Made by a program: the position numbers and the translations under genes. The notes beneath the pieces were generated by a model, which worked only from the letters and a program-made list of their open reading frames with translations, ran no database searches and had not been told where the DNA came from. DNA of 64,000 nucleotides from IMG/VR virus record IMGVR_UViG_3300021431_000096, positions 29,360-93,359 of that record; one strand, given 5' to 3'. Origin of the DNA: a virus (taxonomy: Duplodnaviria > Caudoviricetes). Shown here in pieces: positions 3,958 to 52,861 of the stretch; within the stretch, counting starts at the first letter, position 1, and every line of letters starts with the position of its first letter.

Positions 3958-3963
3958 GGCGAT

Positions 3964-4263: not shown

Positions 4264-4356
4264 CCCGCACACCAACCAACAATATCCAACACAAGATAGA
4301 ATGAGACTAAATCTCAGCATAGTTCACTGATTTATTAACTAAAATTTGTTTGCATT

Positions 4357-5328
4357 ATGGCAATTACAAATCCAACCAAGTACGTTTCCGTACAAAGACT
4401 GAGCCGCTTCGAGGCTAAGCTCGCTCAGAAGTATCAGACACAGGCCATCACCGCCATCACTGGTCTGAATGCAGAAACCGTAGAGGCCGCTCTGGCTGAG
4501 TTGCTCGGCAAGATCAACGCGCTCCCCAGCGCCATCATCCCCAAGGGCTCCAAGGCTTTCGCAAGCCTCGCTCCCTCGACCGACCTGGCTGCTGCCAACC
4601 TCGGCTTCATGTGGAACATCACGGACGCCTTCACCACCACAGCCGACTTCGCCGAGGGCGCTGGCCACAGCATCCCCGCTGGAGCCAACGTGTATGTGGC
4701 CAACGTAGGCACCGCCGCTGAGCCCGTCTACAAGTACGACATCTTCGCCGGCATGTACGACCTCTCAGGCTACGCCCTGAAGAGCGAGATGTCTATCACC
4801 GACGGTGAGGGTGCCGACGCCGACAAGACCACTATCCAGCTGAAGAGCGGTCTGTCGAAGCAGGTGCTCATCGCCCACCAGGACATCAGCGGCAAGGCCG
4901 ACAAGGTGGCTTCTGCTACCAGCGGCAACCTCGCCGGACTGGACGGCAACGGCAACCTGACCGACTCTGGCATCGCAGCTACTGACGTGGCTACTATCGA
5001 CGCCGACGCCGTGGAGGGCAACATCGCCGAGTTCGACGCCAACGGCAACCCCGTGGACAGCGGTCACGCACTCTCTGAGTACAAGACCAAGCAGACGGCT
5101 GTGGCTGATGCTGACGCCACCACCAGCGGCAACGACACGACCTTCGTGGACAGCGTGACACAGGACACCAACGGCGAGATCTCCGTCCACAAGAAGACCG
5201 TTCCCAACGTGTCTGCCTCTACCTCTGGCGCAGGCGGCACCAACGGCCTGATGCTCGCCACCGACAAGGAGAAGCTCGACCTGCTGCTGGAGTGCTCCGA
5301 CGACGACATCGACAGCATCTTCGCGTAA
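4357..5328 (+). CDS. Head/tail fibre-like protein
   Basis: HQDISGKADK, GNLAGLDGNGNLTDSG repeats and GLMLATDKEKLD, motifs common in phage fibres; ends DDIDSIFA. Confidence 0.7.
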   Translation: MAITNPTKYVSVQRLSRFEAKLAQKYQTQAITAITGLNAETVEAALAELLGKINALPSAIIPKGSKAFASLAPSTDLAAANLGFMWNITDAFTTTADFAEGAGHSIPAGANVYVANVGTAAEPVYKYDIFAGMYDLSGYALKSEMSITDGEGADADKTTIQLKSGLSKQVLIAHQDISGKADKVASATSGNLAGLDGNGNLTDSGIAATDVATIDADAVEGNIAEFDANGNPVDSGHALSEYKTKQTAVADADATTSGNDTTFVDSVTQDTNGEISVHKKTVPNVSASTSGAGGTNGLMLATDKEKLDLLLECSDDDIDSIFA

Positions 5329-5340
5329 TCTCTCTATCCC

Positions 5341-5375
5341 AGGTCAGCAGGGTTCGACTCCCTGCTGGCTTGCCA
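5341..5375 (+). ncRNA. tRNA-like minihelix (acceptor stem + T-arm + GCCA)
   Basis: AGGTCAG-CAGGG-TTCGACT-CCCTG-CTGGCTT-G-CCA; no D or anticodon arm. Confidence 0.5.
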
Positions 5376-5398
5376 AACATTTTAAAACATCAAGAGAT

Positions 5399-5536
5399 AT
5401 GGCACTAACAAACGAAACAAAGTACGTGACCGTGCGACGGCTCAATCGGTTCCGTAACAAACTGAGGGCAGAACTGCCGAGTACGACCGTTGCATCCGAC
5501 GCCACCTGCGAGGCCATCGTCGACGAACTCGTCTGA
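5399..5536 (+). CDS. 45-aa motif-only adaptor peptide (not in ORF track)
   Basis: MALTNETKYVTVRRLNRFRNKLRAELPSTTVASDATCEAIVDELV*; N-half matches the N-terminus of 4357..5328, C-half matches the C-terminus of 1363..2880. Confidence 0.75.
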   Translation: MALTNETKYVTVRRLNRFRNKLRAELPSTTVASDATCEAIVDELV

Positions 5537-6516: not shown

Positions 6517-7926
6517 ATGGCACAGGAATTTGACATTTTGAAAATCGGAGGCGTTCCCATCAACGCCTGCGACGTCGTGGCACGCCAGCGCATCGACGAG
6601 CTGGCAGCAGCCAGCGGCGTGACCTACTTCGGCCGCGTGTGGAACCTCCAGAACTCCACGCCCGTGGCCGACCACTACATCGGCAACCTCGCCTTCGGAC
6701 AGCAGCTGCCCGAATGGCTCGGACTGGGCTGCTACATCGTGAAGAACGACCACAGCCGTAAGAAGCTGATGGCCGACAACCATTATAAGTACGAGAACGG
6801 TGCTCCCGCCAAACTGGATGGTACAGAAGGCCATTACCAGTGGGGATGGGGCAAGAAGTTCTATATCGTGGTGAAACAGCAGGGCGACGAGCTGGCGCTG
6901 ATTATTGCCAAGGGCAAGATTCCCGGCGAGGTGAACTACACCATTCCCGTGGCCTCTGAGTCTGCGGCTGGATGGGCTACGATGGAACGCAGCACTGGTA
7001 AGCTGGTAAGCTACATCAATATGGGTGCCGACTACCGTGGTGGTAACAACGACAGCAGTCGTGACGGACAGTATAACACTATGCTCGGACGCCCTGCATC
7101 TTCTATGACTACCAACGCATTCCTGACTGCCGCCCGCCTGAATGGCGACGGATGGCTGGGTGCAAGTATGCGCTTTGACTGCGTGAAGGCCATACTCTTC
7201 TACGTCATCTTCGGTAACCTGAACGTACAGGCCGCCTATAATGCCAATAAGGACGCCAATGGACTGTATCAGGGCGGACTTGGTACTGGTCCTACCAATG
7301 CAGGCGGTTGGTGGGGAGCCAACTGGGACTATTATCCCGTGTTCCCACTGAGTGCAGGTATAGAGTTGGGCGACCGTTGTGGCGTGTTCAACTATGTAGT
7401 GAAGGACGGTGAGGACAATACGTTGCAGACCATGCAGGGTACCTGTTTCTTCGGATTGAAGAACGGCATGGGCGGTATCATGTGGAAGATGATGACCGAC
7501 GAGTTGCTGCAGTGTAATGAGGATAAGAGTCAGACGCACCTGATAGCCGAGAAGATTTGTAAGGTGGACGGCAATTACACCTACAGCATCGGCAACAGCG
7601 CTACGGGCTTTAAGGTTGGTGGTACCACACCTGCTTATGAGAGTGCTGCATGGAACAGTATCAGCCGCGTGCTCTTCAAGAATCTTGAGCTGCTGCCTAT
7701 CGGTGTCGGTCAGACCAATCGCTTCAGCGATGATTATTACAATCCTGCTATAACCTCCGGGTTCCGTCTTGTGCTCCGTTCCGGCTCTCTGGACCATGGT
7801 GGTCGGTGTGGCCTTTCGTTTGTCCTTGGTTACATTGGTGTCGGGAATGCCTATGCGTACGGCGGGTCGTCGCTCTGCGAAGTGACCGAGGAGTGGAGCG
7901 TGGACGGAGAGTACGTCGAGGTCTAA
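6517..7926 (+). CDS. DGR target protein, probable receptor-binding protein with C-terminal CLec-like variable region
   Basis: VR lies in the last ~57 codons (GFRLVLRSG...GSSLC); last gene of the fibre module. Confidence 0.85.
   Translation: MAQEFDILKIGGVPINACDVVARQRIDELAAASGVTYFGRVWNLQNSTPVADHYIGNLAFGQQLPEWLGLGCYIVKNDHSRKKLMADNHYKYENGAPAKLDGTEGHYQWGWGKKFYIVVKQQGDELALIIAKGKIPGEVNYTIPVASESAAGWATMERSTGKLVSYINMGADYRGGNNDSSRDGQYNTMLGRPASSMTTNAFLTAARLNGDGWLGASMRFDCVKAILFYVIFGNLNVQAAYNANKDANGLYQGGLGTGPTNAGGWWGANWDYYPVFPLSAGIELGDRCGVFNYVVKDGEDNTLQTMQGTCFFGLKNGMGGIMWKMMTDELLQCNEDKSQTHLIAEKICKVDGNYTYSIGNSATGFKVGGTTPAYESAAWNSISRVLFKNLELLPIGVGQTNRFSDDYYNPAITSGFRLVLRSGSLDHGGRCGLSFVLGYIGVGNAYAYGGSSLCEVTEEWSVDGEYVEV
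7755..7875 (+). repeat. DGR variable repeat (VR)
   Basis: 15 mismatches to TR over 121 bp, every one opposite an A in TR. Confidence 0.95.
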
Positions 7927-8328: not shown

Positions 8329-9861
8329 ATGAAGACGATAAAACGACTATCGGACGACATAGCGACTGTCAATAATTTCATCGAAGCGCATGAGAACTAC
8401 ACAGAGACAAAGCCTTATAGGACTGATATCCGTGAGTTTGAAAGCAACTTCACTGCAAACATCAGAACACTTCTTAGAGCATATAACCTTGGCAACTGGG
8501 TGCCACCAGAATACGAAGAGCGTACTATCGTAGAACATAACAAGCTACGGAAACTTGGTGTTTATCCTGCGGCAGAGCACAATATAGAATGGGCAGCACT
8601 GAATTATCTGGAGAAACCGTTGACCGATACATACATCCGCAACTCTTGCGCCTGCGTCAGAGGACGAGGACAGAATGACTTTATTGATATCATATCCCGC
8701 GCCATGCGCAACAGTTATGATGACACACGCTACGGCGTGCAACTGGATGCGCACCACTACTTTCAACTGATAGATCACAATATCATAGAGTGTGTGCTTG
8801 AAAGGAAGATCAAGGACGAAAGGTTGATGCGGTTACTGCACAATATCCTGAGTTCTTTCATGAACGGATTGGTGCTCGGTACTAAACTCAGCCAGATAGA
8901 GGCGAACTTCCAACTGTCGCCCTTTGACCACGGAGCACAATCATTATGGGGTGTTCGCAACGATGTGGAGAAGATGTGTTACTGGCGCCGAAGATATGTT
9001 GACTGGTGCATAGCAACCGTGCGAACCAAGGAACAGGCCGAGGAGCTCGCCAAGGGCGTGCAGTACCTGAACGCGAAGTTCGACAGCCTTGTGGACAAGG
9101 GCGTGTTCTATGCCAGGTTTGCCGACAACATCATCATGCTCTCTGGAGACAAGGCATTCTTGCATATCGTCACCGAAATTGCCATTATGGTGCTGGCACG
9201 GGACTATCACTATCAAACTAACAAGTCGTGGAATGTCCGACCTGTTGAACCCGATGGCATAGACATCTGCGGTTATGTATTACATCATTATTATAGAAAA
9301 GTAAGAAAACGCATTAAACAAGATTTATGGAGAGAGGTCATACAGCTTCGCAAAAAAGGGAAATCGCCAGAGGAAATACGCCTGGCATGTGCCTCGCGTA
9401 TTGGGTGGCTAACGCATGGCGACTGTAGGAACCTTCTCAGGAAAATGAATGTCAATATGGAAGAACGGCTTGGCGATAAGATTAAGAAAAAGAGAATAAT
9501 GATTCCTTTTGAAGGTATGACGAAAGAACAGCGACGTTCTATCGAGGACTTTCTTTGTTATACTGACGAAGACGAAAATGATAAGATGATTCTCCTTTTG
9601 GAATATACTGTCGGCAAGTCGATATTTCCAGGAAAAGAAAACCGTGCTGCGTTAAGGTTCAAAACTTCAAACGGAATCATTCGTCATCCCGATGGTACCA
9701 CAGAGCATCAGTGGAGTGAAGAGGAACTTTACGCATGGACTGGTTCACAAATACTGATAGAACAGATGTTGCAGGAGTTCTCACCAGAAGATTTGCCTGC
9801 GCCGACGGCCATTCACGAAAACACGAACAAATACGGAAAGAAATATTATAAGTTCACTTAA
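8329..9861 (+). CDS. DGR reverse transcriptase with C-terminal extension
   Basis: SCACVRGRG, QLDAHHYF, LVLGTKLSQ, YARFADN, GIDICGY motifs. Confidence 0.92.
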   Translation: MKTIKRLSDDIATVNNFIEAHENYTETKPYRTDIREFESNFTANIRTLLRAYNLGNWVPPEYEERTIVEHNKLRKLGVYPAAEHNIEWAALNYLEKPLTDTYIRNSCACVRGRGQNDFIDIISRAMRNSYDDTRYGVQLDAHHYFQLIDHNIIECVLERKIKDERLMRLLHNILSSFMNGLVLGTKLSQIEANFQLSPFDHGAQSLWGVRNDVEKMCYWRRRYVDWCIATVRTKEQAEELAKGVQYLNAKFDSLVDKGVFYARFADNIIMLSGDKAFLHIVTEIAIMVLARDYHYQTNKSWNVRPVEPDGIDICGYVLHHYYRKVRKRIKQDLWREVIQLRKKGKSPEEIRLACASRIGWLTHGDCRNLLRKMNVNMEERLGDKIKKKRIMIPFEGMTKEQRRSIEDFLCYTDEDENDKMILLLEYTVGKSIFPGKENRAALRFKTSNGIIRHPDGTTEHQWSEEELYAWTGSQILIEQMLQEFSPEDLPAPTAIHENTNKYGKKYYKFT

Positions 9862-9888
9862 TATTCATCATTTTAAAATGTTTTGATT

Positions 9889-10542
9889 ATGAAAACAAGA
9901 AGTTATCAGTCAGGTTTGACTTACGAAAAGTATGATCGCGACCACATTGCAATCTACTTCAACGAGACAACAAAGGAAGTGCCTTCGGGTAATGATAGGG
10001 AATCGACACAGGTAGAGTATGAATACGATACTGTGCTTGTGGCTGCTGAGACTCCTTCAGTAGAGGCATTTGCAGCAGCCCTTGTGGCTAATGGCATAGC
10101 CTTGCTTGATGCACAGGCTATTGCTACGGGTATTATCTTTGCTTCAATCCAAAAGGGGCAGTTGGAGGGTGATGAGCTTGCTGCAGCCAAGGAGATGGTA
10201 CGAGCCAAGATTACTGCCTACGACTCGTCATCGGCAGTTAATGAGTTTACCTATCAGGGAACGCCGATGTGGCTTGACAAAGACACACGTGCAGGTTTGA
10301 TGCTGCGACTGAATGCCGAACAGGCTGGTGGTCACGAAAACACAACGTTATGGTATGGCACACAATCCTTCTCGTTGCCTGTAAGCAGTGCTATACAGAT
10401 GCTTACCGCATTGGAACTTTACGCATCGGCTTGCTTCGACATGACGGAAGAGCACAAAGCCGCTGTTGATGCCAAACACACGGTTAACACCGTATTGGCA
10501 TACGATTATACGCAAGGCTATCCCGAAAAGCTGGCTTTCTAA
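9889..10542 (+). CDS. Tail fibre assembly-like protein (DUF4376-like)
   Basis: KITAYDSSxAVNxF...MWLDKDTR...LELYA...YDYTQGYPEKL pattern typical of Bacteroidales phage genes after fibre/DGR loci. Confidence 0.6.
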   Translation: MKTRSYQSGLTYEKYDRDHIAIYFNETTKEVPSGNDRESTQVEYEYDTVLVAAETPSVEAFAAALVANGIALLDAQAIATGIIFASIQKGQLEGDELAAAKEMVRAKITAYDSSSAVNEFTYQGTPMWLDKDTRAGLMLRLNAEQAGGHENTTLWYGTQSFSLPVSSAIQMLTALELYASACFDMTEEHKAAVDAKHTVNTVLAYDYTQGYPEKLAF

Positions 10543-10577
10543 TCGTTTGTCCTGATTTTCAATAACGCAGAGTAACT

Positions 10578-11081
10578 ATGAGCGTTTCGATAATGCTTTC
10601 TATCCTCCTGGTGGTGTCCTTTGTGGGCACCACCATTTGGAAAGAGAAAGAACTGCCAGATAGCATCAGCGCAATGGTGTGGGTGCTTCCCGAAGGCGGC
10701 TTGCGGTGGCTGTGGTCAATATGGCTCGTTGCCGTGTCCATCCTTACCTTTGCTCCTGCCATCGGCATCCTCGACGCAAGGGGTCTTGGTGTGTTCGGAT
10801 TTCTGCCTATGGTATGCCTCGGCTTTGTTGCAGTGTGGCCTCTCTTCGACCAGGAACACGTCAAATGGCACTACGTGATGGCAGTGGTCGGCGGCATCCT
10901 CTCGCAGGTCACGGTGGCTTTTATCAATCCGTGGTGGCTATCCGTCTGGCTCTTGATGGCTGTAGCGCTATGGAAGCCCATCAGAAGCAAGGCTGTGATG
11001 ATATCGGAGTGTCTATGCTATGTGGCGATGGTTGGCGCACAAACAAGCACAGCTCTTTTCGTCCACACGCAAAATCCATAG
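10578..11081 (+). CDS. Multi-pass membrane protein
   Basis: Five or six hydrophobic segments. Confidence 0.65.
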   Translation: MSVSIMLSILLVVSFVGTTIWKEKELPDSISAMVWVLPEGGLRWLWSIWLVAVSILTFAPAIGILDARGLGVFGFLPMVCLGFVAVWPLFDQEHVKWHYVMAVVGGILSQVTVAFINPWWLSVWLLMAVALWKPIRSKAVMISECLCYVAMVGAQTSTALFVHTQNP

Positions 11082-11297
11082 CAATAAATCTTTTTTTCAT
11101 TATGACTAACGGCGAAGAACAGAAATCACGGAGTTACTTTTACCGCTTCGAGGCCAACACGCGGATATCAAGCCCGACAAGTTCGGTGGCGCACAGGTGG
11201 CCACGCCCGACATGCTGACCGCCGATATGTTGACGTGGGGCATCAAGGCCGAGATAGACCGCAAGTTCTCCAAGGTTTTCGCTATGAACAAGCAGAC

Positions 11298-11434
11298 CGC
11301 GCGTCCAGGACGGCACCTCATCCGAAGGCGGTGATAATGGCGACAACGGCGGCTTCGCTAAATTCAGCGGCACGCCCTCTCCGGCAAAGCGCCACCGTCT
11401 GGATGAATGTTTACAATGGTCCCAGACGCGTTGG
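11298..11434 (-). ncRNA. Candidate rod-like small RNA
   Basis: Begins just after the minus-strand promoter 11440-11470; 11300-11309 pairs with 11421-11430 through two G-U pairs only on the minus strand; inner CATCC/GGATG and CGGTG/CACCG stems. Confidence 0.4.
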
Positions 11435-11439
11435 AACGG

Positions 11440-11470
11440 CAAAGGTAGGGAATGTTTTCGGAACGGCAAG
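11440..11470 (-). promoter_or_regulatory. Host-type promoter CTTG-N19-TACCTTTG
   Basis: Plus strand CAAAGGTA 11440-11447 and CAAG 11467-11470. Confidence 0.6.
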
Positions 11471-11641
11471 CGTTCGTTAGCATTATTTAAGGAAAAGCAC
11501 AAGGGGAGTCCCCGCCGTCCGAGATGGATGGCAGGGATGACTTTGTGGTGTTCTGGCAGCTACCTGACGACGACCGTCAGCTCCGATCCGTCCGTGAAGA
11601 TGATGTCCTGATTGTGATACAGAGGTGGTTGCCGTTATTTA

Positions 11642-11675
11642 GTCCCAAACGAAAAAAGCACATATTGTAAATTTG
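11642..11675 (+). promoter_or_regulatory. Phage-type promoter GTCCCA-N20-TAAATTTG
   Basis: Exact motif and spacing. Confidence 0.7.
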
Positions 11676-11744
11676 CTGATAGAACGCCGCCCAGATGCGG
11701 TTAACAGCGCCAGCCGCAGACAGCGGCTTACTCTCGCGAAGGGA

Positions 11745-11884
11745 AAAGAAAAAAGTTCAGGACTTGCGGGCGAACCTGCTACAATTCTAACGGACATGAA
11801 CCGTCTGTACCCGCAAGGAACCTGAACTAAAAGGTCTCCTTTCTGATACGACGGTTCAATATTTTATTCCGTAAGAATTGTAGC
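11745..11884 (-). ncRNA. Candidate structured RNA with interleaved A-B-A'-B' pairing
   Basis: 11754-11770 complementary to 11810-11828; 11778-11805 complementary to 11850-11884; minus-strand TAATTTTG box at 11889-11896 and U-tract at the 3' end. Confidence 0.5.
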
Positions 11885-11885
11885 G

Positions 11886-12200
11886 ATGCAAAATTATAAC
11901 AAAAATTACAATCGAGAGAATATCCATCACATCAGTGGGTACAATTTAGTGAAACTTAACGCTTATAAACTGAAATTAATGCAGGCTCTCGGCATCAGGG
12001 TGGAGGACGTTAAAAACCTTGCTCCTTACGAGGCTTATCACAACATGATGGGCATGAATATCGACCGAAAGCGCATGTATGCTTTCATCCGGCAGGAGTA
12101 CGGCATCAGCAGGACGAATATGCAGAATATAGCGAAGCGTTTTGAGCAGACGGTTGACAATGATGCCGGTGATTTCGGGGAGGAAATCGGAGACGGATAG
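11886..12200 (+). CDS. Small HTH (Mor-like) DNA-binding protein; true start may be GTG 11949 or ATG 11979
   Basis: C-terminal AFIRQEYGISRTNMQNIAKRF helix-turn-helix pattern. Confidence 0.5.
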   Translation: MQNYNKNYNRENIHHISGYNLVKLNAYKLKLMQALGIRVEDVKNLAPYEAYHNMMGMNIDRKRMYAFIRQEYGISRTNMQNIAKRFEQTVDNDAGDFGEEIGDG

Positions 12201-12455
12201 TTAAGGTTTGTCAATAGAGTGACGCGGGTTTTGGCTGACGGTAGCCAAAACAGCGGTTTTCGGGCGGTATGGCTGTGGCTGTATCGCTCGAAAGCCTTTT
12301 ATACAGGCGGTTTCTGCGTAGCCAAGAACGGTGGCTGCGCATTAACGCTTTTCTTTGGCAGGTGTGGCTTCTTTTTCCGAAATTTGCTGTCGGAAACGAG
12401 GAAACTCAAATCCACTACAATTCACTTTATTTATTAACACAAAAACTTTAAGACT

Positions 12456-13025
12456 ATGGCATTAGAGATGAATGATTTGATGATGCTCCGTGGGATGGAC
12501 TCCAAGGAAGGTCTGTCGCCCTATGAGCAGGTGAAGCTCGACCACATGACTGCAAAGAATCACACTGGCGGTGTGGCAGTAGCAGGACTGGTGACTGGCG
12601 TGGCTGGTGTTACCATCGCCGCAACGGCATGGCTGTTCGGTGGTATGTACTCCAATGCGAAAGCGAAGGAGGCCAAGGAGACGGCTATTGCCGCCAAGGA
12701 GATTGCAACCCTGCAGAACGGCGCTACACAGCGTCAGCTCGATCAGTTGACCAACCTGTTTGCTGCTGAGCGTCAGGAGCGCATCGCTGGCGACGTGACG
12801 CTGAACCAGACCATCACGGACACCGTGAGCGGTCAGCAGGCCAGCACCCTTACTGCCCAGCAGCAGGCAGAACTCATGGCCTCGCAAGCTACGCAGCAGG
12901 TGATGACGAAGACCTATGAGGACTTCGTGACTGGTCGCGCTTCGCTGAACCCGACTCCCGTCAGCCTGTACTCGGCTCCACAGCCTTGTGCTTGTCCTGC
13001 CAGCGGTTGCGGTTGCGGCGCGTAA
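12456..13025 (+). CDS. Hypothetical: Gly/Ala hydrophobic segment, coiled coil, Cys-rich tail (PCACPASGCGCGA)
   Basis: ORF with A-rich leader and strong codon bias. Confidence 0.7.
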   Translation: MALEMNDLMMLRGMDSKEGLSPYEQVKLDHMTAKNHTGGVAVAGLVTGVAGVTIAATAWLFGGMYSNAKAKEAKETAIAAKEIATLQNGATQRQLDQLTNLFAAERQERIAGDVTLNQTITDTVSGQQASTLTAQQQAELMASQATQQVMTKTYEDFVTGRASLNPTPVSLYSAPQPCACPASGCGCGA

Positions 13026-13109
13026 GCGATTTGAGGGGCTGTGACTGTCCCGTATGCTGCGGCACTGCCGCAGCCTCTCATTTCCAAATTCAATTCACGG
13101 CAATATGAT

Positions 13110-13475
13110 ATGTTTGGATATGGTAAACGAAAACGACGTATGCAGATGGTACAACAGGGATTAAGGGCGACGAGCAAGAGCAGTCTGAAGCTGCAATGCC
13201 TCTTTTGTGCAAAGGGCGACCTGAAGGAGGCAAAGGAACTCTACGACTTCTTTGCGAGCGACATGCCCGACCTTCCGGACTACGACCCTGTGCCGCCGAC
13301 TTGGCAGCAGAACACGGCACAGACCATCAACGGCATCATGGACTGGGTGAAAGAGAACCAGGGGGCGTTGGCACAGGCTTACGACTTCATAGCAGGCATC
13401 GTCAGAAAGCGGGGCATACCGCCAACGGCTGCGCCCGAGCCGCCAGCCGCACCGCTGCCACCCATCAATCAGTAA
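13110..13475 (+). CDS. Hypothetical protein of the Cys-rich cassette
   Basis: ATG 13110 follows AATTCACGGCA leader shared with the next gene. Confidence 0.6.
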   Translation: MFGYGKRKRRMQMVQQGLRATSKSSLKLQCLFCAKGDLKEAKELYDFFASDMPDLPDYDPVPPTWQQNTAQTINGIMDWVKENQGALAQAYDFIAGIVRKRGIPPTAAPEPPAAPLPPINQ

Positions 13476-13493
13476 CAACTAATTCACGGCATT

Positions 13494-13715
13494 ATGAATG
13501 AGAAGAAAGAAATCAAGGTGTTCCCCATCACGTTCGAGGTGTATGCCTACGATGCGCAGGAGGTGGAGGAACTGCGCAGTGCGATAGTGGACTTTATCGC
13601 CACCAACGCCCAGCGGAAAGTGCCTATACTGGCTGGCAAGGCCGCACAGGGCATCAGGGCATGGGATAAGAACCCGTTCGTCAGGAACAGGATTATCCAA
13701 CACTTCCAAGTTTAG
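13494..13715 (+). CDS. Hypothetical protein of the Cys-rich cassette
   Basis: ORF in operon context. Confidence 0.6.
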   Translation: MNEKKEIKVFPITFEVYAYDAQEVEELRSAIVDFIATNAQRKVPILAGKAAQGIRAWDKNPFVRNRIIQHFQV

Positions 13716-13762
13716 AAAGAATCAGAAAGTTTTGCAAGAATTATCAAAAAATAGCAAGGATT

Positions 13763-14098
13763 ATGGATCAGACAAATCAGAATCAGAATCAGCAGAGCGG
13801 GCAGTTCAAGTGTCCAGGCAACTGTCTGCAGTGCCTGCCCGCACAGCGTCAGTATTGTGCCTCGCAGCACGCCTACTCGAACATGAAGGTGCTCGACAAA
13901 ATCATGGAGACGCTACTCGGTATGAAGAACCAGATGGACGCGATGCAAGGCACGGTCGCGGAGCTCTCGGCGAAGATCGAGGCCATCCAGAACGGCGAGG
14001 CTGCCGTGTTCGACCCCAATGGCGAGGGCGAGCTCTTCCCGAAGGAGTTTGCCGTCGCGGAGCCCGCAACCGACGCACCTGCAGAGGCGGCGAAATAA
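13763..14098 (+). CDS. Hypothetical: CPGNCLQC...C motif plus coiled coil
   Basis: Four Cys followed by a heptad pattern. Confidence 0.65.
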   Translation: MDQTNQNQNQQSGQFKCPGNCLQCLPAQRQYCASQHAYSNMKVLDKIMETLLGMKNQMDAMQGTVAELSAKIEAIQNGEAAVFDPNGEGELFPKEFAVAEPATDAPAEAAK

Positions 14099-14115
14099 GC
14101 CCCTGAAAATGCCGA

Positions 14116-14190
14116 TGGACTTTTACTACCAACAAAAGTCCACTTTTACTACCAATAAAAGTCCACTTACGCTCCAACAAAAGTCCACCT
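14116..14190 (+). repeat. 3 x 22-23-bp tandem repeat (AAAAGTCCAC core)
   Basis: Cores at 14134, 14157, 14179. Confidence 0.85.
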
Positions 14191-14268
14191 GCACAAAAAT
14201 ACAGCGCAAGACGGGTAGCGGCGCACCAAAAGGCTCCCAAGATAATCAACACAAAAAACTAAAGTATT

Positions 14269-14748
14269 ATGGCAAACTGTAATTGTAATTGTCGTAACGG
14301 ACAGGATGCACTCGACTTCCTGACTTCCGTACCAGGCGGCACCGCTGCCAACGCAACGTATCAACTGGGACTGACCCACTACACTTGTGGAAACCGCAAG
14401 ATGCTCGTGGCTGACCCGACGCATCCCGTCATCGCACAGCTGACGGCTACGCCCGTCGGTACGCCCATCGACCTCGGCAACGACACCTTCTGTCAGGAGT
14501 GCCAGATTGCGGGCACCGTCACCTACAAGCCCTGTAACTCCTGCTCGCCGCAGACCGAGTATGTCAGCCAGCGCGTCTGCCTGCCGTGCTCGTCGGCTGT
14601 GTCGCCCACGCTCACCATCGGCACCGTGGCTGCTTCGCCGAAGCCTATCACGTACTACGCAAACAATGGCTGCGGATGCTGCCAGGGCACTTACCCATGC
14701 ACCAACCGCATCGCCATCACCACGTCGATTAACGTGACAACGGCATGA
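14269..14748 (+). CDS. Cys-rich beta-strand protein (14 Cys in 159 aa)
   Basis: CNCNC, three CxxC, CGCC. Confidence 0.7.
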   Translation: MANCNCNCRNGQDALDFLTSVPGGTAANATYQLGLTHYTCGNRKMLVADPTHPVIAQLTATPVGTPIDLGNDTFCQECQIAGTVTYKPCNSCSPQTEYVSQRVCLPCSSAVSPTLTIGTVAASPKPITYYANNGCGCCQGTYPCTNRIAITTSINVTTA

Positions 14749-15125
14749 ACTGGCCCGATGTACTGATGATTGTCTTCTCCGCGACAGCCGCCAACCACCT
14801 CGGTCTGGCGGCTGCCGCAGAGAGCGTCGTCCGTCACCGCCTGCCAGTCCTGAACTGTCCCAAGTGTGCGGCATTCTGGAGTGTGATAGTGTACGGTGTG
14901 GCGGTAGCAAATTCTTCACTCTTCACTCTTCACTCTTCACTCCAAATCCTCGCCGCCGCCTTCCTCTCCGCATGGTCAGCCGTCTGGCTCGACCTCTTAA
15001 TGGGAATCATTGACCAATTATATATAAAGGTATATGACACGTTTTATCCAACAACAGATACCACCGACACCGACGCGCTCGATACCGCAGACCCCGTGTC
15101 CGATGTGTCCGACGGCCAAGGTTGA
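14745..15125 (+). CDS. Membrane protein with CxxC
   Basis: ATGA overlap with the previous gene; LNCPKCAAFW; three hydrophobic segments. Confidence 0.6.
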   Translation: MNWPDVLMIVFSATAANHLGLAAAAESVVRHRLPVLNCPKCAAFWSVIVYGVAVANSSLFTLHSSLQILAAAFLSAWSAVWLDLLMGIIDQLYIKVYDTFYPTTDTTDTDALDTADPVSDVSDGQG

Positions 15126-15307
15126 GTCTGTCGCTGTGCCACAGCGACCGCAGCCCAAATCCGAAACAATATCGGAAAAGGCACCGAAACCGATGCCTAA
15201 ACGACAAAATAAGAAATAAAAATCGCCGATTTCCGCTTGTTTCCGCAGAAATCCTGCAAATAAGCAGGTTTAAGTCGGCTTAAAGTCTAATTTAAACAGA
15301 AAATAAG

Positions 15308-15808
15308 ATGAACTCAACAGAATTGAAAGACCGCTACATGGGTCTTTATGACTACATGGCGCAGAGCCGCGACCCGAAGAATATGAAAGCCTTCGGTTGC
15401 GTGATGACAGAGATGATGGACTACCTCGTGGCCAACAAGCCCGACGTAGCCGAAGAGATGATAGACAAACTGGAGGCTATCAAATGGCGTCAGTACCTCA
15501 CGCCAAAAGAGGCCGAGAAGATTGTCGCCGGTATGGAACCGAAAGCACCGTGGAGTCGCGAGGTGTGGAAGAACGCTATGGAGTCGTTCGGACTGCCACT
15601 GGAGGAGATGCCAGCCTACAACCGCTGTGCGCTCTGGGTGGAGATGAACAAGATTTACTCCGACTTCGGCGAAGAGATAGCCGCCTTGCTCGGCAAACCG
15701 CTGTCAGCATCCGACAAGGATATCATCTCAGCCTGCTACAAGATGGCGCTGAAGAACCTGAAGGATAAGGACGGCGTGTACGACATCCGCAAGTATTTCC
15801 TCTGGTAG
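15308..15808 (+). CDS. All-helical hypothetical protein
   Basis: YLTPKEAEKIV...PWS...LWVEMNKIYSD...KMA..LKDKD pattern that I recognise from gut-phage cassettes. Confidence 0.65.
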   Translation: MNSTELKDRYMGLYDYMAQSRDPKNMKAFGCVMTEMMDYLVANKPDVAEEMIDKLEAIKWRQYLTPKEAEKIVAGMEPKAPWSREVWKNAMESFGLPLEEMPAYNRCALWVEMNKIYSDFGEEIAALLGKPLSASDKDIISACYKMALKNLKDKDGVYDIRKYFLW

Positions 15809-15850
15809 GTCAAAGTAGGTCAGAGAAGGTCAAAGTAGGTCAAGTTTTGT

Positions 15851-16138
15851 ATGGACTATGCCGCCGCTGCTGATGCACTCATGCGCCGCAAACTCTTAGA
15901 GCAGATGTACGACCGCATGACCGACGAAGAGAAGCGACTCTTCGCCATGATGACAATGCAGAACAAGAGCAGCGACGAGATCCTGCAGGCTATTCAGAAG
16001 AACCAGCAACACTTGCAGCACCTCGTGGAGCACGCCGACCGCGACCAGTGGTACAAAGCCTTCGGCTCCGACGTAGCCGCCAACGTGCTCACCACCTCTG
16101 CCTTCTGGCTCCTCGGCAAGCTCTTCGCCAAGCGATAA
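15851..16138 (+). CDS. Hypothetical protein with amphipathic C-terminus
   Basis: ORF in operon context. Confidence 0.6.
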   Translation: MDYAAAADALMRRKLLEQMYDRMTDEEKRLFAMMTMQNKSSDEILQAIQKNQQHLQHLVEHADRDQWYKAFGSDVAANVLTTSAFWLLGKLFAKR

Positions 16139-16241
16139 AACTATCCATTCGATATCGCCGTGAATGGTCGCGGGCGCATCGGTTTCACAGCCCTTGCGCC
16201 CGCCTTTTTTGCCTGCAAATGCGCCCTTTCCGCAGCCTTAT

Positions 16242-16275
16242 ATCCCAAAAAGTTCACCGCCCGTCTATATCTTTG
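16242..16275 (+). promoter_or_regulatory. Phage-type promoter ATCCCA-N20-TATCTTTG
   Basis: One mismatch to GTCCCA; 23 nt before ATG 16298. Confidence 0.6.
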
Positions 16276-16297
16276 CAGAAAAGAAATCAGACAAGAC

Positions 16298-16663
16298 ATG
16301 ACAACATTTATTAATGACATCCAACCCATCCTGTTGACCGCCCTCGTTGGCGTACTCATCGCCTATGCTCGCTACGTGAACACCCTGAAAACCCGCGTGG
16401 CAGTGTTAGAGCGAACCATCGAAGATTTGCTGAAGACCATCGACAGCATGCAGAAGCGGCTCGACTCGCACTCGAAGAAACAGGACGAGATTCACGACAC
16501 GCTCAACGACGTGAAGAGCGACATGAAGGACATGAAGGTGGAAATCGTGAAGGAGATGGGACAGATGGCCTCGAACCTGAGCGGACTGGCCTCCGACCTG
16601 AAAGGACTCAACAACCTGCTCGCAATCTCTGACTACGGCATCCGTGCCAACAAACCGCAATAA
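16298..16663 (+). CDS. Single-TM coiled-coil protein (holin/hemolysin-like lysis accessory)
   Basis: N-terminal TM (ILLTALVGVLIAYA) followed by heptads. Confidence 0.5.
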   Translation: MTTFINDIQPILLTALVGVLIAYARYVNTLKTRVAVLERTIEDLLKTIDSMQKRLDSHSKKQDEIHDTLNDVKSDMKDMKVEIVKEMGQMASNLSGLASDLKGLNNLLAISDYGIRANKPQ

Positions 16664-16666
16664 AAT

Positions 16667-17107
16667 ATGATTCATCACGACCGATATCCCAATCACTCCG
16701 TGCCTCCGGCTCGCCACAAAGTCGGAAATCGCCGCACTTGGGCTGACCGCTTCGGGCTAAACGTCTTGCGCCAGCGGTGGTCAAACGCCATGCCAAAGTT
16801 CTTCAAGCGTGTATGCTGGCTGTCGGCTCTCGTCGGCGGAACCGCCCTCGCCGTCAATACCGCAATAACATCTGGCGGCGGAACGACGCACGAATGGTGG
16901 AACGACATCTATCCATATTTATTGGGTGTTCCTGCTGGAGCCGCTTTCGTGGCCAAGTTCACTCAGAACTATGATCGAGACGGCAAGCCCATCAAAAAGG
17001 AACTTCCAGAGGGCGACAATCCGTCAGCCGTAAACTACTCCGATATTGAGACCGTTTCGCCTGCTGAGCATGAGAAAATCGACATCGACCCGTACAATGG
17101 CGATTGA
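16667..17107 (+). CDS. Putative holin
   Basis: Basic N-terminus, RW...PKFFK motif, two hydrophobic segments, acidic tail. Confidence 0.5.
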   Translation: MIHHDRYPNHSVPPARHKVGNRRTWADRFGLNVLRQRWSNAMPKFFKRVCWLSALVGGTALAVNTAITSGGGTTHEWWNDIYPYLLGVPAGAAFVAKFTQNYDRDGKPIKKELPEGDNPSAVNYSDIETVSPAEHEKIDIDPYNGD

Positions 17108-17314
17108 CATATATCATTGCTAAAAGATGCGCTTCTCGATATACCCAACAAACAAACGTTAAACAGAAGCTTAAAATATCTTAAACTATTGTCTAAGAAC
17201 ACCCCAAAAACGGACATCAAAGAAAGAGTATCAAATTTTGGTTGATTTCTGAACAAAAAGCGGAAGAAAAGACAGAGACATTCTATAATATATAAGGTAT
17301 AAAAGGACAACGAT

Positions 17315-17857
17315 ATGACACAGAATTGGGAGTGCGAAGAATTATTTCTTAACGAGGTGGTGCGTGTAGAACTGGTACCGGCGAGCAAGGCTGAATTGCT
17401 CGTGCCGTTCAATGTCGGCGAGGTGACGGCAACGGCAGGATGGAAAGAGATTGACGACCCTGATAAGCCAGGCAAAAAGAAAAACGTGTCGCGGGTCGGC
17501 ACGGCGGTGATGGTGATTGACGCGACGGCGACAGACGCGACGGGAAGGCTGGTGTCGCCGCCGACGCTGAAGACCACGGAGAAGCCCGACAGGGCGGGAT
17601 ATATCCGCCAGCACGACCTGCAGATACCCACGGAGGGCGGCTACGAGGACATCCGCAAGAAGCGTGGAGAGCTGGCAGGCGTGGACTTCAACGTGGTGCT
17701 GGAGATGCGCAGCGGCTCGCGGTTTCTGATCTATGCGCTGCCGAACTCATCGACGGTGGCCGTGGAGGATCAGTTCAGCGGCGAGGGCAAGCAGACGGTG
17801 AAGGTCTCTCTTCAGTCGATGTCGAACATGATCCGTCTGACCGATTCAACGACATAG
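17315..17857 (+). CDS. Hypothetical, probable virion protein
   Basis: Beta-rich ORF just upstream of the head genes. Confidence 0.55.
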   Translation: MTQNWECEELFLNEVVRVELVPASKAELLVPFNVGEVTATAGWKEIDDPDKPGKKKNVSRVGTAVMVIDATATDATGRLVSPPTLKTTEKPDRAGYIRQHDLQIPTEGGYEDIRKKRGELAGVDFNVVLEMRSGSRFLIYALPNSSTVAVEDQFSGEGKQTVKVSLQSMSNMIRLTDSTT

Positions 17858-18101
17858 CGGGCGACCGCTCCATATCTTCATATAGCTGACAGACACACAA
17901 TCTTTAAAGTCTAATTTAGTTTATAAATTGTCCCGACGGCGTGGTGCGTGAGCATCGCGCCGTCTTTCGTTTATCCCTTAAAAACGCCTTTTGACCTGCG
18001 GTCGAAATTGCTCACGCTCGGAAATGCTGATGCGGGGCATCGCATTTCGCTCGCTTACTCGCAATTTTGCCCTAAAAACGGCTTTTGCGGGCGAAAAAGC
18101 A

Positions 18102-18133
18102 GTCCCAAAGAAATCGCACGTGCTATACCTTTG
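18102..18133 (+). promoter_or_regulatory. Phage-type promoter GTCCCA-N18-TACCTTTG (head operon)
   Basis: Motif upstream of ATG 18190. Confidence 0.65.
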
Positions 18134-18189
18134 CCGATGTGGACGCGACGAGCCACGACAGCAAAATTGAAAATCGAAAAATCAGATTT

Positions 18190-19938
18190 ATGAACGGACT
18201 ATTTGAAATACTCAGCAACAAGGAGTGGATGATTCAGCAGGAGTTCCTGCACAGCATCCTGCCTACGCTGCAGTACAACATCACAAACCATGCCTCTCTC
18301 GGCATCGAGCGCGAGAAGAAGTCGCCAATGGCCATCGGTCAGCATGGACAGGACTTCATTCGTGAGTATCAGGTGACACAGGACGGAAAGACGCACGGTC
18401 GTTATGGCTGGCGCGGCGACAGCCTGTCAGAGTTGAATGAACCTTTCGTCAATGTTATGCCTATTGACGGACCTATCACCCGCAATGGCGGCGCTTGCAG
18501 CTACGGGTCGATGGAAATCCGCGACTGGATGATGGAGGCTGCTAACAATCCTGCTTGTCAGGGTCACGTATTGAACATCAACACCCCCGGCGGCAGCGCT
18601 TGGGCAAAGAACGACTTCCAGCAGGGTATCGACTATGCTCACGCCCGTGGTCAGCGCGTCATTGCCTTCATCGACGGACTTTGCGCTTCGGCTGGCATGT
18701 ATCTCGCTTCGCTCTGCGACGAGGTGTATGTAATGAACCCGAAAGACCAGTTGGGCTGCGTCGGTGTAATGGCTGCTTTCTGCACCATGAAGAACGGAGA
18801 AAAGTATCAGTGGGGCGAGACCTACCACGAATACTACGCTACCAAGAGTATCAACAAGAATAAGGAAATGCGCGACATTGCCGAGAACGACGACGCCAAG
18901 CTGCTCATTGAAGAGCTCGACAAGCTGGAGGCTGAGTTCCGTGCCGACATGAAGGCTGCTTTCCCCAATGCCAAGGACGAGCACCTGGACGGCAAGGTAT
19001 TCGACGCTAAAGATGTGATGGGCATCCTGTGCGACGGTGAGATGATGCTCGGCGACGTGATCTGCCGCGTGTTCAACCTCGCCAACGGCACCGAACAACC
19101 CATCGCCCGCACCGCAGGCCGAAAGGTCGCTAAGCGTCAGCAGACGGCAGGTCGCGGCACGTCGGCTGGTCAGCAGGCATCCGTCGGCAACTGTGCATCC
19201 GCATCCGTCCGCATGACCGCCGCGCAGGCTAAGGAAAACATTTTATCACCAACAAATAACAGTATCAACATGAAAGAGAATTATCCCGCAGTGTTTGCGC
19301 TTCTCGGAGTCGAGGAGATGCAACTTTCAGAGGAGGGCACTTTCTTCAACAAGGATCTGCTCGCCACGCTGAACAGCGCCATTGAGGCGAAGAACAAGGA
19401 GACGGCTGACGCCAAGGCTCTGGCCGAGCAGCTGACCTCAGAGAAGAACGAGCTGACCGCTCAGATTGAGACGCTGAACGCCGACCACCAGAAGGCCATC
19501 GACGACCTGAAGGCTGAGCACGCCACGGCCATCGAGGAGAAGGACAACCAGATTTCTGCCCTGGAGCAGGAGAAGGCCGACCTCACCGCCGCCGCCACGA
19601 CGAAGGACGAGGAAATCGCCACGCTGAAGACCGACGCAGAGGGCAAGGCTTCACAGATTGAGCAGCTGACCACCGACCTGAACGGTGCGAAGGAGAGTCT
19701 GACCACCGCCGAGGGCACGATTGCCGAGCGCGACCAGACCATCAGCGACCTGAACGCCCAGATTGCCGAACTCCAGAACAACCCCGGCGCAGAGCCCGCA
19801 GCAGGCGCAGCCCCGAAGAACAACGGCGGCGGTGCGGAAGCCCCAGGCGTAGCCGTCAACCAGTATGTCTATGACCCCTCACTCTCCTACGAGAAGAACA
19901 TGGAGGCCAAGGAAAAGTGGGAGGCCGAGCACAAGTAA
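18190..19938 (+). CDS. S49 (SppA/ClpP-like) prohead protease fused to a coiled-coil scaffold
   Basis: INTPGG, DGLCASAGMYLAS, GCVGV motifs; long C-terminal coiled coil; precedes the capsid gene. Confidence 0.85.
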   Translation: MNGLFEILSNKEWMIQQEFLHSILPTLQYNITNHASLGIEREKKSPMAIGQHGQDFIREYQVTQDGKTHGRYGWRGDSLSELNEPFVNVMPIDGPITRNGGACSYGSMEIRDWMMEAANNPACQGHVLNINTPGGSAWAKNDFQQGIDYAHARGQRVIAFIDGLCASAGMYLASLCDEVYVMNPKDQLGCVGVMAAFCTMKNGEKYQWGETYHEYYATKSINKNKEMRDIAENDDAKLLIEELDKLEAEFRADMKAAFPNAKDEHLDGKVFDAKDVMGILCDGEMMLGDVICRVFNLANGTEQPIARTAGRKVAKRQQTAGRGTSAGQQASVGNCASASVRMTAAQAKENILSPTNNSINMKENYPAVFALLGVEEMQLSEEGTFFNKDLLATLNSAIEAKNKETADAKALAEQLTSEKNELTAQIETLNADHQKAIDDLKAEHATAIEEKDNQISALEQEKADLTAAATTKDEEIATLKTDAEGKASQIEQLTTDLNGAKESLTTAEGTIAERDQTISDLNAQIAELQNNPGAEPAAGAAPKNNGGGAEAPGVAVNQYVYDPSLSYEKNMEAKEKWEAEHK

Positions 19939-23018: not shown

Positions 23019-23090
23019 CAAAGATACGGCTTTTGTCGTCTGTTTTGGGACAAGATAGTCCCATTATATATATATAAGGTATTACCTTTG
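23019..23090. promoter_or_regulatory. Back-to-back divergent phage-type promoters
   Basis: CAAAGATA 23019-23026 -N19- TGGGAC 23046-23051; GTCCCA 23058-23063 -N19- TACCTTTG 23083-23090. Confidence 0.75.
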
Positions 23091-23123
23091 CCATTGAAAT
23101 CAAACAAAAAGGCGATATAGATT

Positions 23124-52740: not shown

Positions 52741-52757
52741 ATCGCCTTTGTTTTCCG

Positions 52758-52791
52758 CAAAGGTAATACCGACCTTTCGACGAAATGGGAC
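52758..52791 (-). promoter_or_regulatory. Phage-type promoter GTCCCA-N20-TACCTTTG
   Basis: CAAAGGTA 52758-52765, TGGGAC 52786-52791. Confidence 0.75.
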
Positions 52792-52861
52792 TATCTTGAC
52801 AGATAATCGTTAAATTTATAAAATAAAAAGCCACATCCTTGCACATCCAAAATATTCTTCT

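Follow-up and report, generated by a model that had tools for sequence, protein, structure and literature searches.

What is the role, in a phage of Bacteroidota, of a run of small co-oriented genes that follow an HTH gene and include several with conserved cysteines? In the 64,000-nucleotide stretch of viral DNA analysed here (the window), a sequence-only reading had described about nine such genes and had proposed that they build a self-assembling, crosslinked structure, either a protective coat recalling spore coats or a metal/redox sink. The open reading frames include all nine described genes, each on the plus strand (Table 1), although that count was incomplete, as a tenth gene, g07b, had been overlooked. 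The operon lies between tail-fibre/DGR genes and head genes.

Table 1. Coordinates of genes and transcription-related features of the module in the window
Feature	Position	Strand	Basis or context
Composite promoter-like site: GTCCCA, ~20 nt, TAAATTTGC	11640..11676	+	Upstream of HTH gene g01
g01, 104-aa HTH regulator, phrog_17790 (function unassigned)	11886..12200	+	ORF list, PHROG match
Terminator-like hairpin, 19-bp stem then T run	12255..12296	+	Between g01 and g02
Candidate host-type promoter: TTTG, ~20 nt, GAAATTTGC	12353..12387	+	Before g02; consensus only
g02, 189 aa	12456..13025	+	ORF, homologue comparison
Leader 11-mer AATTCACGGCA	13092..13102 (before g03) and 13481-13491 (before g04)	+	Repeat reading
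g03, 121 aa	13110..13475	+	Start chosen from homologues
g04, 73-aa small conserved protein	13494..13715	+	Homologue comparison
g05, 111 aa	13763..14098	+	ORF, homologue comparison
g06, 159 aa	14269..14748	+	ORF, AlphaFold model
g07, 126-aa integral membrane protein	14745..15125	+	Hydrophobicity, homologue comparison
g07b, 61 aa	15034..15219	+	Hidden gene in another frame, overlapping g07 3' end; conserved in 17/19 loci
g08, 166 aa, Pfam DUF7841 (PF25223)	15308..15808	+	Pfam match, AlphaFold model
g09, 95 aa, helical	15851..16138	+	Last gene of conserved unit

The genes of the module are genuine and are conserved as a unit. About 26 distinct phage contigs of Prevotellaceae/Bacteroidales keep the order of g02-g09, as does BS162P1, a cultured Bacteroides phage obtained from sewage on a lawn, with protein identities of 25-98% among homologues. 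Across rumen and gut phages of Bacteroidota, many genomes keep about ten small genes together as a block. The flanking head genes switch side and strand between contigs while the order of g02-g09 stays unchanged, and the module is conserved as well as or better than the capsid (in one example, g08 shows 82% identity against 25% for the capsid protein). Of eight phages with the same capsid family and a completeness of at least 90%, two lack the module.

Searches of PHROGs, Pfam, NCBIfam and PADLOC matched no module gene to an ordinary virion, lysis or defence family. None of the members has a virion family match in PHROGs, and the PADLOC models returned only two chance-level matches, both for g09 (E 0.003-0.006, ~14 bits). 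Pfam and NCBIfam revealed no enzyme or redox domain among the proteins, in agreement with the earlier statement that no enzyme motifs could be recognised. Thus, the genes co-occur as the sequence-only reading had supposed, and PHROGs, Pfam and NCBIfam place none of them in an ordinary virion family. Its description of the cassette as orphan does not hold for g08, which belongs to DUF7841, the only catalogued family in the module. The roughly ten-gene block of Bacteroidota phages corresponds to no described system.

The upstream region indicates how the block may be expressed. A Bacteroidetes-type -7 box, TAAATTTGC, lies at 11668, 20 nt after GTCCCA at 11642; the pairing recurs before g13 (18100/18126) and before the gene at 23124 (23056/23083), and the window has 21 occurrences of TAnnTTTGC where 6.0 would be expected. 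The promoter-like site is present, as had been noted, but it serves g01 rather than pointing into the whole cassette: g01 is followed by the terminator-like hairpin and then by a separate box before g02 (TTTG...GAAATTTGC at about 12353/12379), which has AAATTTGCTG in common with the g01 box. Judged by consensus only, the g02-g09 operon thus probably has its own host-type promoter, set off from g01 by the hairpin. Searched against Pfam with E up to 0.01, the regulator itself matches none of the families, Mor included, which leaves its labelling as Mor-like without Pfam support; its one match is phrog_17790. Homologues of g01 precede g02 in nine loci (L010, L012-L014, L021, L023, L026, L031 and L033), and among relatives the slot holds HTH genes of differing families, including a different HTH gene in BS162P1 and a related 75-aa HTH in L082.

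Autonomous promoter/terminator units within late regions are characteristic of lambdoid morons such as lambda bor and lom, and morons often sit at the end of the tail-fibre block or beside lysis genes (lambda bor/lom, T1/phi80 cor). We considered a moron-type module for host conversion or superinfection exclusion, whose membrane proteins, made from a host-type promoter, would alter the envelope or block phage DNA. Consistent with this are the candidate promoter, the dedicated regulator, the insulation by a terminator-like hairpin, the membrane anchors described below, the patchy distribution among phages with a common capsid family and a location fitting both of the moron sites just named. A related phage that forms a separate 82-kb contig in an isolate assembly also fits. 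We nevertheless think this explanation unlikely. Ten genes are many for exclusion, PADLOC provides no match, the proteins are conserved at least as well as the capsid, and the module is carried by the sewage phage BS162P1, itself obtained on a lawn. With respect to a promoter and terminator of its own, the module has a promoter-like box and hairpin before g02 and, within the window, no terminator directly 3' of g09.

The proteins themselves point to the membrane. In g02, a conserved N-terminus of 37 aa (PYEQ) precedes one strong, Gly/Ala-rich transmembrane segment (residues 40-58, present in 20/20 homologues), a coiled-coil region and the tail CACPASGCGCGA, with a conserved C-terminal cluster, CxCPxxGCGC(NG). 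This is the layout that had been read from the sequence; K/R residues are nearly equal on the two flanks of the segment, and g02 has no family match in PHROGs or Pfam. The second membrane protein, g07, has two or three hydrophobic segments, invariant residues N17, H18, C38 and C41 (N17-H18 in the first segment) and an acidic C-terminal tail. Its CxxC motif, already noted in the sequence-only reading and now seen to be invariant, lies in a K/R-rich loop (2-5 K/R versus 0 at the N-terminus) that is predicted to be cytoplasmic. The overlapping g07b, whose end in many relatives overlaps the start of g08 by 4 nt, has the conserved motif RFIQQQ..P.TRS.P..PCPxC, present in the window as CPMCP, and a Lys-rich tail.

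Homologues place the start of g03 at ATG 13110 rather than GTG 13041; the protein is soluble and has no family match, its N-terminus is basic, and a conserved LPPIN[EQ] motif lies at its C-terminus. The leader reported before the two small genes g03 and g04 is confirmed: AATTCACGGCA has exactly two exact copies in the window, each just upstream of an ATG, and because it is equally placed in loci from eight other contigs, it is conserved rather than a product of chance. The C-terminal helix of g09, amphipathic or hydrophobic, scores under the transmembrane cut-off in most homologues. Both g08 and g09 are helical, as had been proposed. The match of g08 to the DUF7841 HMM covers 109/114 profile positions (43.0 bits against a curated cut-off of 25.2, E 6.2e-11), and its AlphaFold model is all-helical (pLDDT 97.5), with no convincing match in a PDB structure search. 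The family (1501 proteins, 305 clusters, from phages and prophages, always stand-alone and ~165 aa long) has no assigned function or solved structure, and our literature search found no paper naming it.

Two members account for the cysteine-rich character of the cassette. The coiled-coil protein g05 has, as described earlier, an N-terminal C-x3-C-x2-C-x7-C motif ahead of its coiled coil, and all four Cys are invariant among homologues. The 14-Cys beta protein of the sequence-only reading is g06, with six invariant residues among the 14 Cys of its 159 aa and a confident all-beta sandwich model (pLDDT 88.9); its family of 849 proteins has no Pfam model. The label Cys-rich is thus apt for g06 (8.8%) and g05 (3.6%), and for short conserved motifs in g02, g07 and g07b, but not for the module as a whole (2.8% versus a genome mean of 1.9%).

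C-x3-C-x2-C spacing, as in g05, resembles Fe-S ligand motifs, and together with the conserved Cys clusters this could suggest a metal or redox sink, or another cytoplasmic metabolic role. We regard this as scarcely credible. The overall Cys content is low, enzyme and redox domains are absent, the g06 homologue in BS162P1 has 7 Cys rather than 14, and the positional analogue in L048 has none; membrane anchoring and coiled coils would also be left unexplained. As for crosslinking, the predicted cytoplasmic position of the g07 CxxC loop and the anaerobic life of the host make disulfides unlikely. What survives of the proposed crosslinked structure is that conserved Cys motifs in five proteins (g02, g05, g06, g07 and g07b) make a metal-stapled assembly plausible.

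A virion accessory, in essence the coat idea, would have a coiled-coil stalk (g02/g05) and the g06 beta-sandwich forming a Cys-cross-linked fibre, decoration or coat. Arguing for this are the location between tail-fibre/DGR and head genes, the compact g06 fold, weak language-model leads to Cys-rich spore-envelope families and the annotation of crAss-like positional analogues of g02 as 'outer capsid protein/viral fiber' or 'spike protein'. Counter to this, those labels were assigned automatically to coiled-coil proteins for which homology to g02 is not established, no structural PHROG is matched, and none of the fold matches reaches significance. In each of two structural searches the g06 model aligned best with alpha-crystallin/HSP20/CS-domain beta-sandwiches, and in one of them small heat-shock or alpha-crystallin-domain proteins fill the first 19 places, but the best (4rzk_B, 84 residues aligned, rmsd 3.8 A) reaches only Z 5.9 where 7-8 is typical for unrelated best matches; ~60 residues of g06 lie outside the match and there is no sequence similarity.

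The likeness to spore proteins fares no better. CsxA and CsxC of Clostridium are Cys-rich SPOCS/DUF3794 spore-envelope proteins, and CsxC combines 14 Cys with a two-sheet beta-barrel (bioRxiv 10.64898/2026.09.03.749163). Like them, g06 is small, Cys-rich and all-beta, with the same number of Cys as CsxC. The SPOCS fold is defined by a beta-barrel of two three-stranded sheets in a strand-swapped trimer, and PDB searches with g06 returned only the alpha-crystallin-like matches. The nearest language-model clusters, SipL (0.84) and CryBP1 (0.86), have sub-threshold scores, and PF12673 (SipL/DUF3794), searched with E up to 10, matches neither 20 members of the g06 family nor the genome in any of six frames. 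Moreover, the Cys count varies among homologues (about half in BS162P1) and the host does not sporulate. A spore-coat-like lattice is thus not supported. Given the two integral membrane proteins, the separate candidate host-type promoter with its terminator-like insulation, the absence from two of eight same-capsid phages and the distant lysis neighbours described next, the module is less likely to be a virion coat or fibre, or a protective coat of any kind, than an accessory membrane complex, and we consider the virion reading improbable.

Distant DUF7841 genes adjoin canonical lysis genes in three unrelated contexts. In one, the neighbours are Phage_holin_4_1 and DUF5675, the latter described as lysin-like (bioRxiv 10.64898/2026.04.11.717860). 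In another they are a holin-like protein, Peptidase_M15_3 and DUF6808. In the third, holin-like, PG_binding_1+Amidase_2 and u-spanin-like genes are followed by an HTH gene and an in-frame g02::DUF7841 fusion (P0139), which occurs in 5 contigs of 50-200 kb and physically links g02 and g08. For the partner proteins in these contexts, hhalign did not establish homology to g02 or g06 (probabilities 0.3-22%). The close sister phages G418, G419 and G420 encode a PG_binding_1+Amidase_2 endolysin 24-53 kb from the module; lysis adjacency is therefore confined to the distant DUF7841 contexts. Next to the module in the window, g10 is the only gene that matches an Rz-like PHROG.

Could the module be the lysis machinery itself? 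On that reading, g07 would serve as a class-I-like holin, the role of g02 would be that of an i-spanin-like or T4-T-like holin, and g08 would be a new muralytic enzyme. The holin-like size, two or three transmembrane segments and charged C-terminus of g07 are compatible with this, as are the bitopic, coiled-coil architecture of g02 and, in g08, an invariant Asn with Glu and Asp residues that at least 90% of 72 sequences retain. Furthermore, none of five endolysin/holin families sought in this genome, PF05105 among them, was found. Against it, a full canonical set (holin-like, endolysin, spanin-like) adjoins DUF7841 in L082 and L046, the sister phages have their ordinary endolysin elsewhere, and the adjacent g10 is a better spanin/holin candidate. 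Neither g07 nor g02 matches a holin in PHROGs or Pfam, g02 matches no Rz-like PHROG, and Pfam, NCBIfam and PHROGs show no muralytic domain in g08 or the other members; the g08 model also has no lysozyme-like or peptidase-like fold match. We thus hold this reading to be very improbable and, because DUF7841 genes adjoin canonical lysis genes in three contexts, consider the module not to be itself a holin, endolysin or spanin.

Our tentative preference is that g02-g09 and g07b specify an autonomously regulated accessory complex of the inner membrane, held together by coiled coils and by sites where Cys binds metal, and that this complex modulates either the timing of lysis or the state of the envelope. 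The products would assemble on the host inner membrane, anchored by the single-pass g02 with its long coiled coil and by the multi-pass g07, onto which soluble g03, g04, g05, g06, g07b and g08 would dock. The Cys motifs (the g02 tail, four Cys of g05, g06, the g07 CxxC and the g07b CPxC) may be shared Zn or Fe sites. What is observed directly is the set of genes and its conservation, the separate transcription signals, the membrane segments, the conserved cysteines and the lysis neighbours of distant DUF7841 genes; metal binding and a single complex are inferred only from the conserved cysteines, and the function is inferred too. Late in infection, such a complex would work at the cell envelope without being part of the virion or one of the lysis proteins proper, and its most likely effect would be to tune lysis timing or membrane integrity, or to exclude other phages. 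Its absence from two of eight same-capsid phages fits, because a replaceable accessory function is expected to be patchy. A bolder proposition, which we hold with considerable doubt, is that of a new phage machine, membrane-anchored, with at least two folds that have no solved relatives, shared Cys-metal staples and its own transcription factor, which controls cell opening or phage exclusion. If true, this would be a previously undescribed multi-protein machine in Bacteroidota phages.

It is useful to set this proposed accessory membrane complex beside known systems. Like i-spanins (lambda Rz/Rz1; compare the unimolecular T1 gp11), g02 is single-pass, with a coiled coil and terminal Cys. Its conserved 37-aa N-terminus and Cys cluster are atypical for spanins, however; the operon genes have no lipobox signal and include no lipoprotein partner for g02, and L082 has a separate u-spanin-like gene, with a lipobox and a C-terminal transmembrane segment, beside the module. 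Lambdoid morons share with the module a candidate host-type promoter, insulation, products predicted to be directed to the envelope and a patchy distribution, but the module is far larger and is strongly conserved as a block even where capsid identity is as low as 25%. Accessory lysis regulators lie beside or apart from holin genes, as in T4, where holin T acts with the antiholins RI and RIII, and in P2 (LysA/LysB/LysC). They are likewise small membrane-anchored and soluble proteins, non-essential and replaceable between related phages, and distant relatives of the module adjoin holin, endolysin and spanin genes; g02 also has a T-like layout, in which a single transmembrane segment separates a short N-terminal part from a large C-terminal domain. 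The module differs from the T4 and P2 regulators in having no sequence or fold similarity to them, in comprising ten genes rather than one to three, and in its conserved, putatively metal-binding Cys motifs and dedicated HTH gene.

Module organization is strongly conserved. In tblastn comparisons of each module protein with related loci, genes g02–g09 are collinear in 21 contigs from IMG/VR and another 5 from MAGs, with identities of 25–98%. The order is thus kept, which is the synteny that the sequence-only reading had proposed to look for; the open reading frames it described are all present in the window. In the cultured Bacteroides phage BS162P1 (OP172706.1), homologues of g02–g08 (E 1e-22 to 7e-3) are arranged as in the window, and every one of them is annotated as hypothetical. 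At 90% identity, the families of g08 and g06 comprise 1501 and 849 protein clusters, respectively. Of 401 Bacteroidota genomes sampled, just 2 contain DUF7841, the family of g08, and we therefore regard it as phage-borne. A DNA similarity search against 50,697 phage records returned no match.

The window corresponds to bases 29360–93359 of a 93,359-bp IMG/VR virus record with an estimated completeness of 95%. Relatives of the region occur in Prevotellaceae and Bacteroidales MAGs from the rumen and in the assembly of an isolate, Prevotella sp. tc2-28; the host guessed from sequence, a member of Bacteroidales, is therefore correct. In the tc2-28 assembly, a related phage (L019/L033) forms a separate contig (NZ_FNRE01000014.1, 82,463 bp). 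Its own IMG/VR record is equally long, which suggests that the phage genome exists free or in a carrier state in the cultured strain.

On its 5' side the module is bordered by tail proteins, a diversity-generating retroelement (DGR) reverse transcriptase, a DUF4376 fibre-like protein and a multi-pass membrane protein, and on its 3' side by the small unit g10–g12, an S49-like head protease/scaffold (g13) and a probable capsid protein (g14). The placement of g13 and g14 varies among contigs: downstream on the same strand, downstream but inverted, or upstream. The capsid protein is often less conserved than the module proteins (at locus L012, 25% identity for g14, 82% for g08 and 61% for g06). 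Eight records have a completeness of 90% or more and the capsid family in common; six of them carry the module and two are without both g08 and g02. The module thus appears replaceable within this capsid family. With this replaceability in view, a moron or exclusion module has to be weighed as an explanation, and we consider it unlikely.

Positions of selected features in the window
Feature	Position	Strand	Remarks
Tail protein gene	6517-7926		adjoins DGR reverse transcriptase, just upstream of module
DGR reverse transcriptase	8329-9861		upstream of module; phrog_1423, E 2e-57
Composite GTCCCA + TAnnTTTGC motif	11640-11676		promoter-like
Composite GTCCCA + TAnnTTTGC motif	18100-18134		promoter-like
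Composite GTCCCA + TAnnTTTGC motif	23056-23091		promoter-like
Composite GTCCCA + TAnnTTTGC motif	52757-52793	-	promoter-like
Composite GTCCCA + TAnnTTTGC motif	57625-57661	-	promoter-like
g07b	15034-15219	+	61 aa; overlaps 3' end of g07 in another frame; absent from the sequence-only reading
g10	16298-16663	+	N-terminal transmembrane segment and coiled coil; weak PHROG matches to Rz-like spanin and holin
g11	16667-17107	+	signal-anchor protein
HU-HIG protein	58121-58693
DDE transposase	61628-63679	+	683 aa; near record end; phrog_506, E 2e-72

The module appears to be transcribed from signals of its own. The window contains 21 copies of TAnnTTTGC, the Bacteroidetes -7 motif, where 6.0 are expected (a 3.5-fold enrichment), and GTCCCA stands about 20 nt upstream of this motif at 11640/11668, 18100/18126 and 23056/23083. 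We interpret this pairing as a phage-specific composite, promoter-like element. The GTCCCA site at 11642, which had been taken to point into the cassette, is indeed present, but it serves the HTH gene g01; g02 has its own candidate promoter box (TTTG...GAAATTTGC), and a terminator-like hairpin of 19 bp lies 3' of g01 (12255-12296). Beyond the other end of the module, g10 and g11 belong to another unit, which has a TATCTTTGC box of its own at 16268; a further hairpin lies 3' of g12 at 17935. Judged from sequence, these promoter-like boxes and hairpins delimit g02–g09 as a unit that coincides with the conserved block. Among the related loci compared, the g10/g11 unit is present only in the window and L008; the two genes are candidates for a spanin or holin pair. 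Within the module, the 11-mer AATTCACGGCA immediately precedes the ATG of g03 (13110) and of g04 (13494), and this common leader, which the earlier reading had picked out, has the same position in loci from 8 other contigs. A sigma-70 promoter scan gave hits at chance level only, as expected for a Bacteroidota host, and an Rfam search over 9500-18500 gave no credible match.

Two members are predicted membrane proteins. All g02 homologues have a single strong hydrophobic segment (residues 40-58), for which the positive-inside rule gives no decision on orientation. In g07 the loop holding the CxxC motif contains 2-5 Lys/Arg and the N-terminus none, and the loop is therefore predicted to face the cytoplasm. 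The Cys motifs described from sequence are all present. The g05 protein has four invariant Cys (C-x3-C-x2-C-x7-C), g06 has 14 Cys of which six are invariant, and the invariant residues of g07 are N17, H18, C38 and C41; the C-terminal cluster of g02 is CxCPxxGCGC. The small gene g07b encodes RFIQQQ..P.TRS.P..PCPxC followed by a Lys-rich tail, a motif kept in 17 of 19 loci; the end of the gene and the g08 start share 4 nt in many relatives. Calling the cassette Cys-rich is apt for g06 (8.8%) and g05 (3.6%) but not for the module overall, at 2.8% against a genome mean of 1.9%.

Conserved Cys motifs thus occur in five proteins, and we consider metal ligands more likely than disulfide cross-links, one of the two options proposed earlier, because the g07 loop is predicted to be cytoplasmic and the host is a strict anaerobe. 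Metal sites of this kind would bridge subunits of the module. A metal or redox role as the purpose of the module, which the same residues might call to mind, seems to us very improbable.

Database comparisons place few of these proteins in families. Across PHROGs, Pfam, NCBIfam and PADLOC, searches with all members gave nothing beyond DUF7841, which makes g08 the only member with a Pfam family, and phrog_17790, of unknown function, the sole match of g01. No PDB sequence matched the profiles of g02, g06 or g08, and we found no papers on DUF7841 or BS162P1. AlphaFold2 predicts an all-beta sandwich for g06 (pLDDT 88.9, pTM 0.81) and a helical fold for g08 (pLDDT 97.5). The structural comparison suggested earlier therefore had confident models to work with, but yielded no convincing match: Foldseek found none at E <=0.001 in PDB or BFVD. 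The best VIA-align results, alpha-crystallin/CS domains for g06 (Z <=5.9) and only a helical hairpin for g08 (Z <=5.4), fall under the tool's level for unrelated best matches. In the ESM Atlas, g06 and g02 gave only unnamed viral clusters and sub-threshold spore-protein leads (CryBP1 and SipL clusters, scores 0.84-0.86). Pfam SipL is absent from all g06 family members examined (SPOCS spore proteins are described in bioRxiv 10.64898/2026.09.03.749163). A weak CLIPPER/DUF11 label on the positional analogue of g06 at locus L048 recurs in no g06 family member.

More distant DUF7841 genes repeatedly lie near lysis genes. At L040, in the genome of a member of Bacteroidota, DUF7841 comes directly after a Phage_holin_4_1 gene and a truncated gene for DUF5675, which is reported to be a C82-like lysin domain (bioRxiv 10.64898/2026.04.11.717860). 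In L046, DUF7841 stands third, after a Cys-tailed and then another coiled-coil protein, and is followed by a four-pass holin-like protein, Peptidase_M15_3 and DUF6808. At L082, from a related phage, a compact lysis cassette (3963-5498) consists of a four-pass holin-like protein, a PG_binding_1+Amidase_2 endolysin and a 131-aa u-spanin-like protein, whose lipobox (LCGC) and C-terminal transmembrane segment give the layout of a unimolecular spanin. It is followed by a 75-aa HTH protein related to g01 and by an in-frame fusion (P0139) that joins the N-terminal part, transmembrane segment and coiled coil of g02 to DUF7841. This fusion occurs on 5 contigs of 50-200 kb. Other in-frame fusions link DUF7841 to a g05-like Cys motif or an HTH (P0227, on 3 contigs, and P0188; L083-L085). 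P0139, P0227 and P0188 look like internal deletions of the module; no fused forms of at least 332 aa were found.

A crAss-like locus (L045) encodes, in this order, a DUF4376 protein (50% identity to that of the window), a membrane protein, an HTH, a coiled-coil protein, DUF7841, a membrane protein and a ring protein. In crAss-like phages and elsewhere, DUF7841 is preceded by 'WNNPF' coiled-coil proteins (phrog_16490). Neither their homology to g02 nor that of g06 to its positional counterparts was demonstrable, so we call all of these analogues only. In the crAss-like phage cr124_1, gp36 (L078 4866-5669) bears the annotation 'outer capsid protein/viral fiber'. Read with table 11, it contains seven in-frame stops; if TAG encodes Gln, it aligns with its relatives, pointing to stop-codon recoding.

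Because holin, endolysin and spanin-like functions are separate genes beside DUF7841 in L046 and L082, the module is not itself a holin, endolysin or spanin, and that it constitutes the lysis machinery is improbable. In the window's genome, searches with five families (DUF5675, Phage_holin_4_1, Amidase_2, Peptidase_M15_4 and Phage_lysozyme) gave no endolysin or holin match, and an endolysin/holin motif scan gave nothing usable. The three close sister phages (G418, G419 and G420) each have a PG_binding_1+Amidase_2 endolysin gene, 24-53 kb from the module; in G419 it lies directly upstream of the terminase genes.

Tentatively, we read the module as an accessory, envelope-directed complex. Arguing for this possibility are its predicted membrane anchors, its own regulator and candidate promoter, its replaceability, and a recurrent, if not universal, position close to lysis genes. 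On these grounds it fits better than the protective coat suggested from sequence, and a virion fibre or coat is doubtful.

Prevotella and Bacteroides phages rank with the most abundant viruses of rumen and gut, and to our knowledge the timing and manner of their exit from host cells are barely known. The module is common, strongly conserved and present in a cultured phage, which makes genetics feasible. A lysis-timing or exclusion device would be a new kind of late-infection control; a particle structure would be unusual in its link to the membrane. In both cases the module supplies two folds that are predicted with confidence and lack solved relatives, and it could conceivably exemplify inter-subunit Cys-metal stapling. 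Its composition is that of no described system, and no kind of system against which it was tested could be shown to include it.
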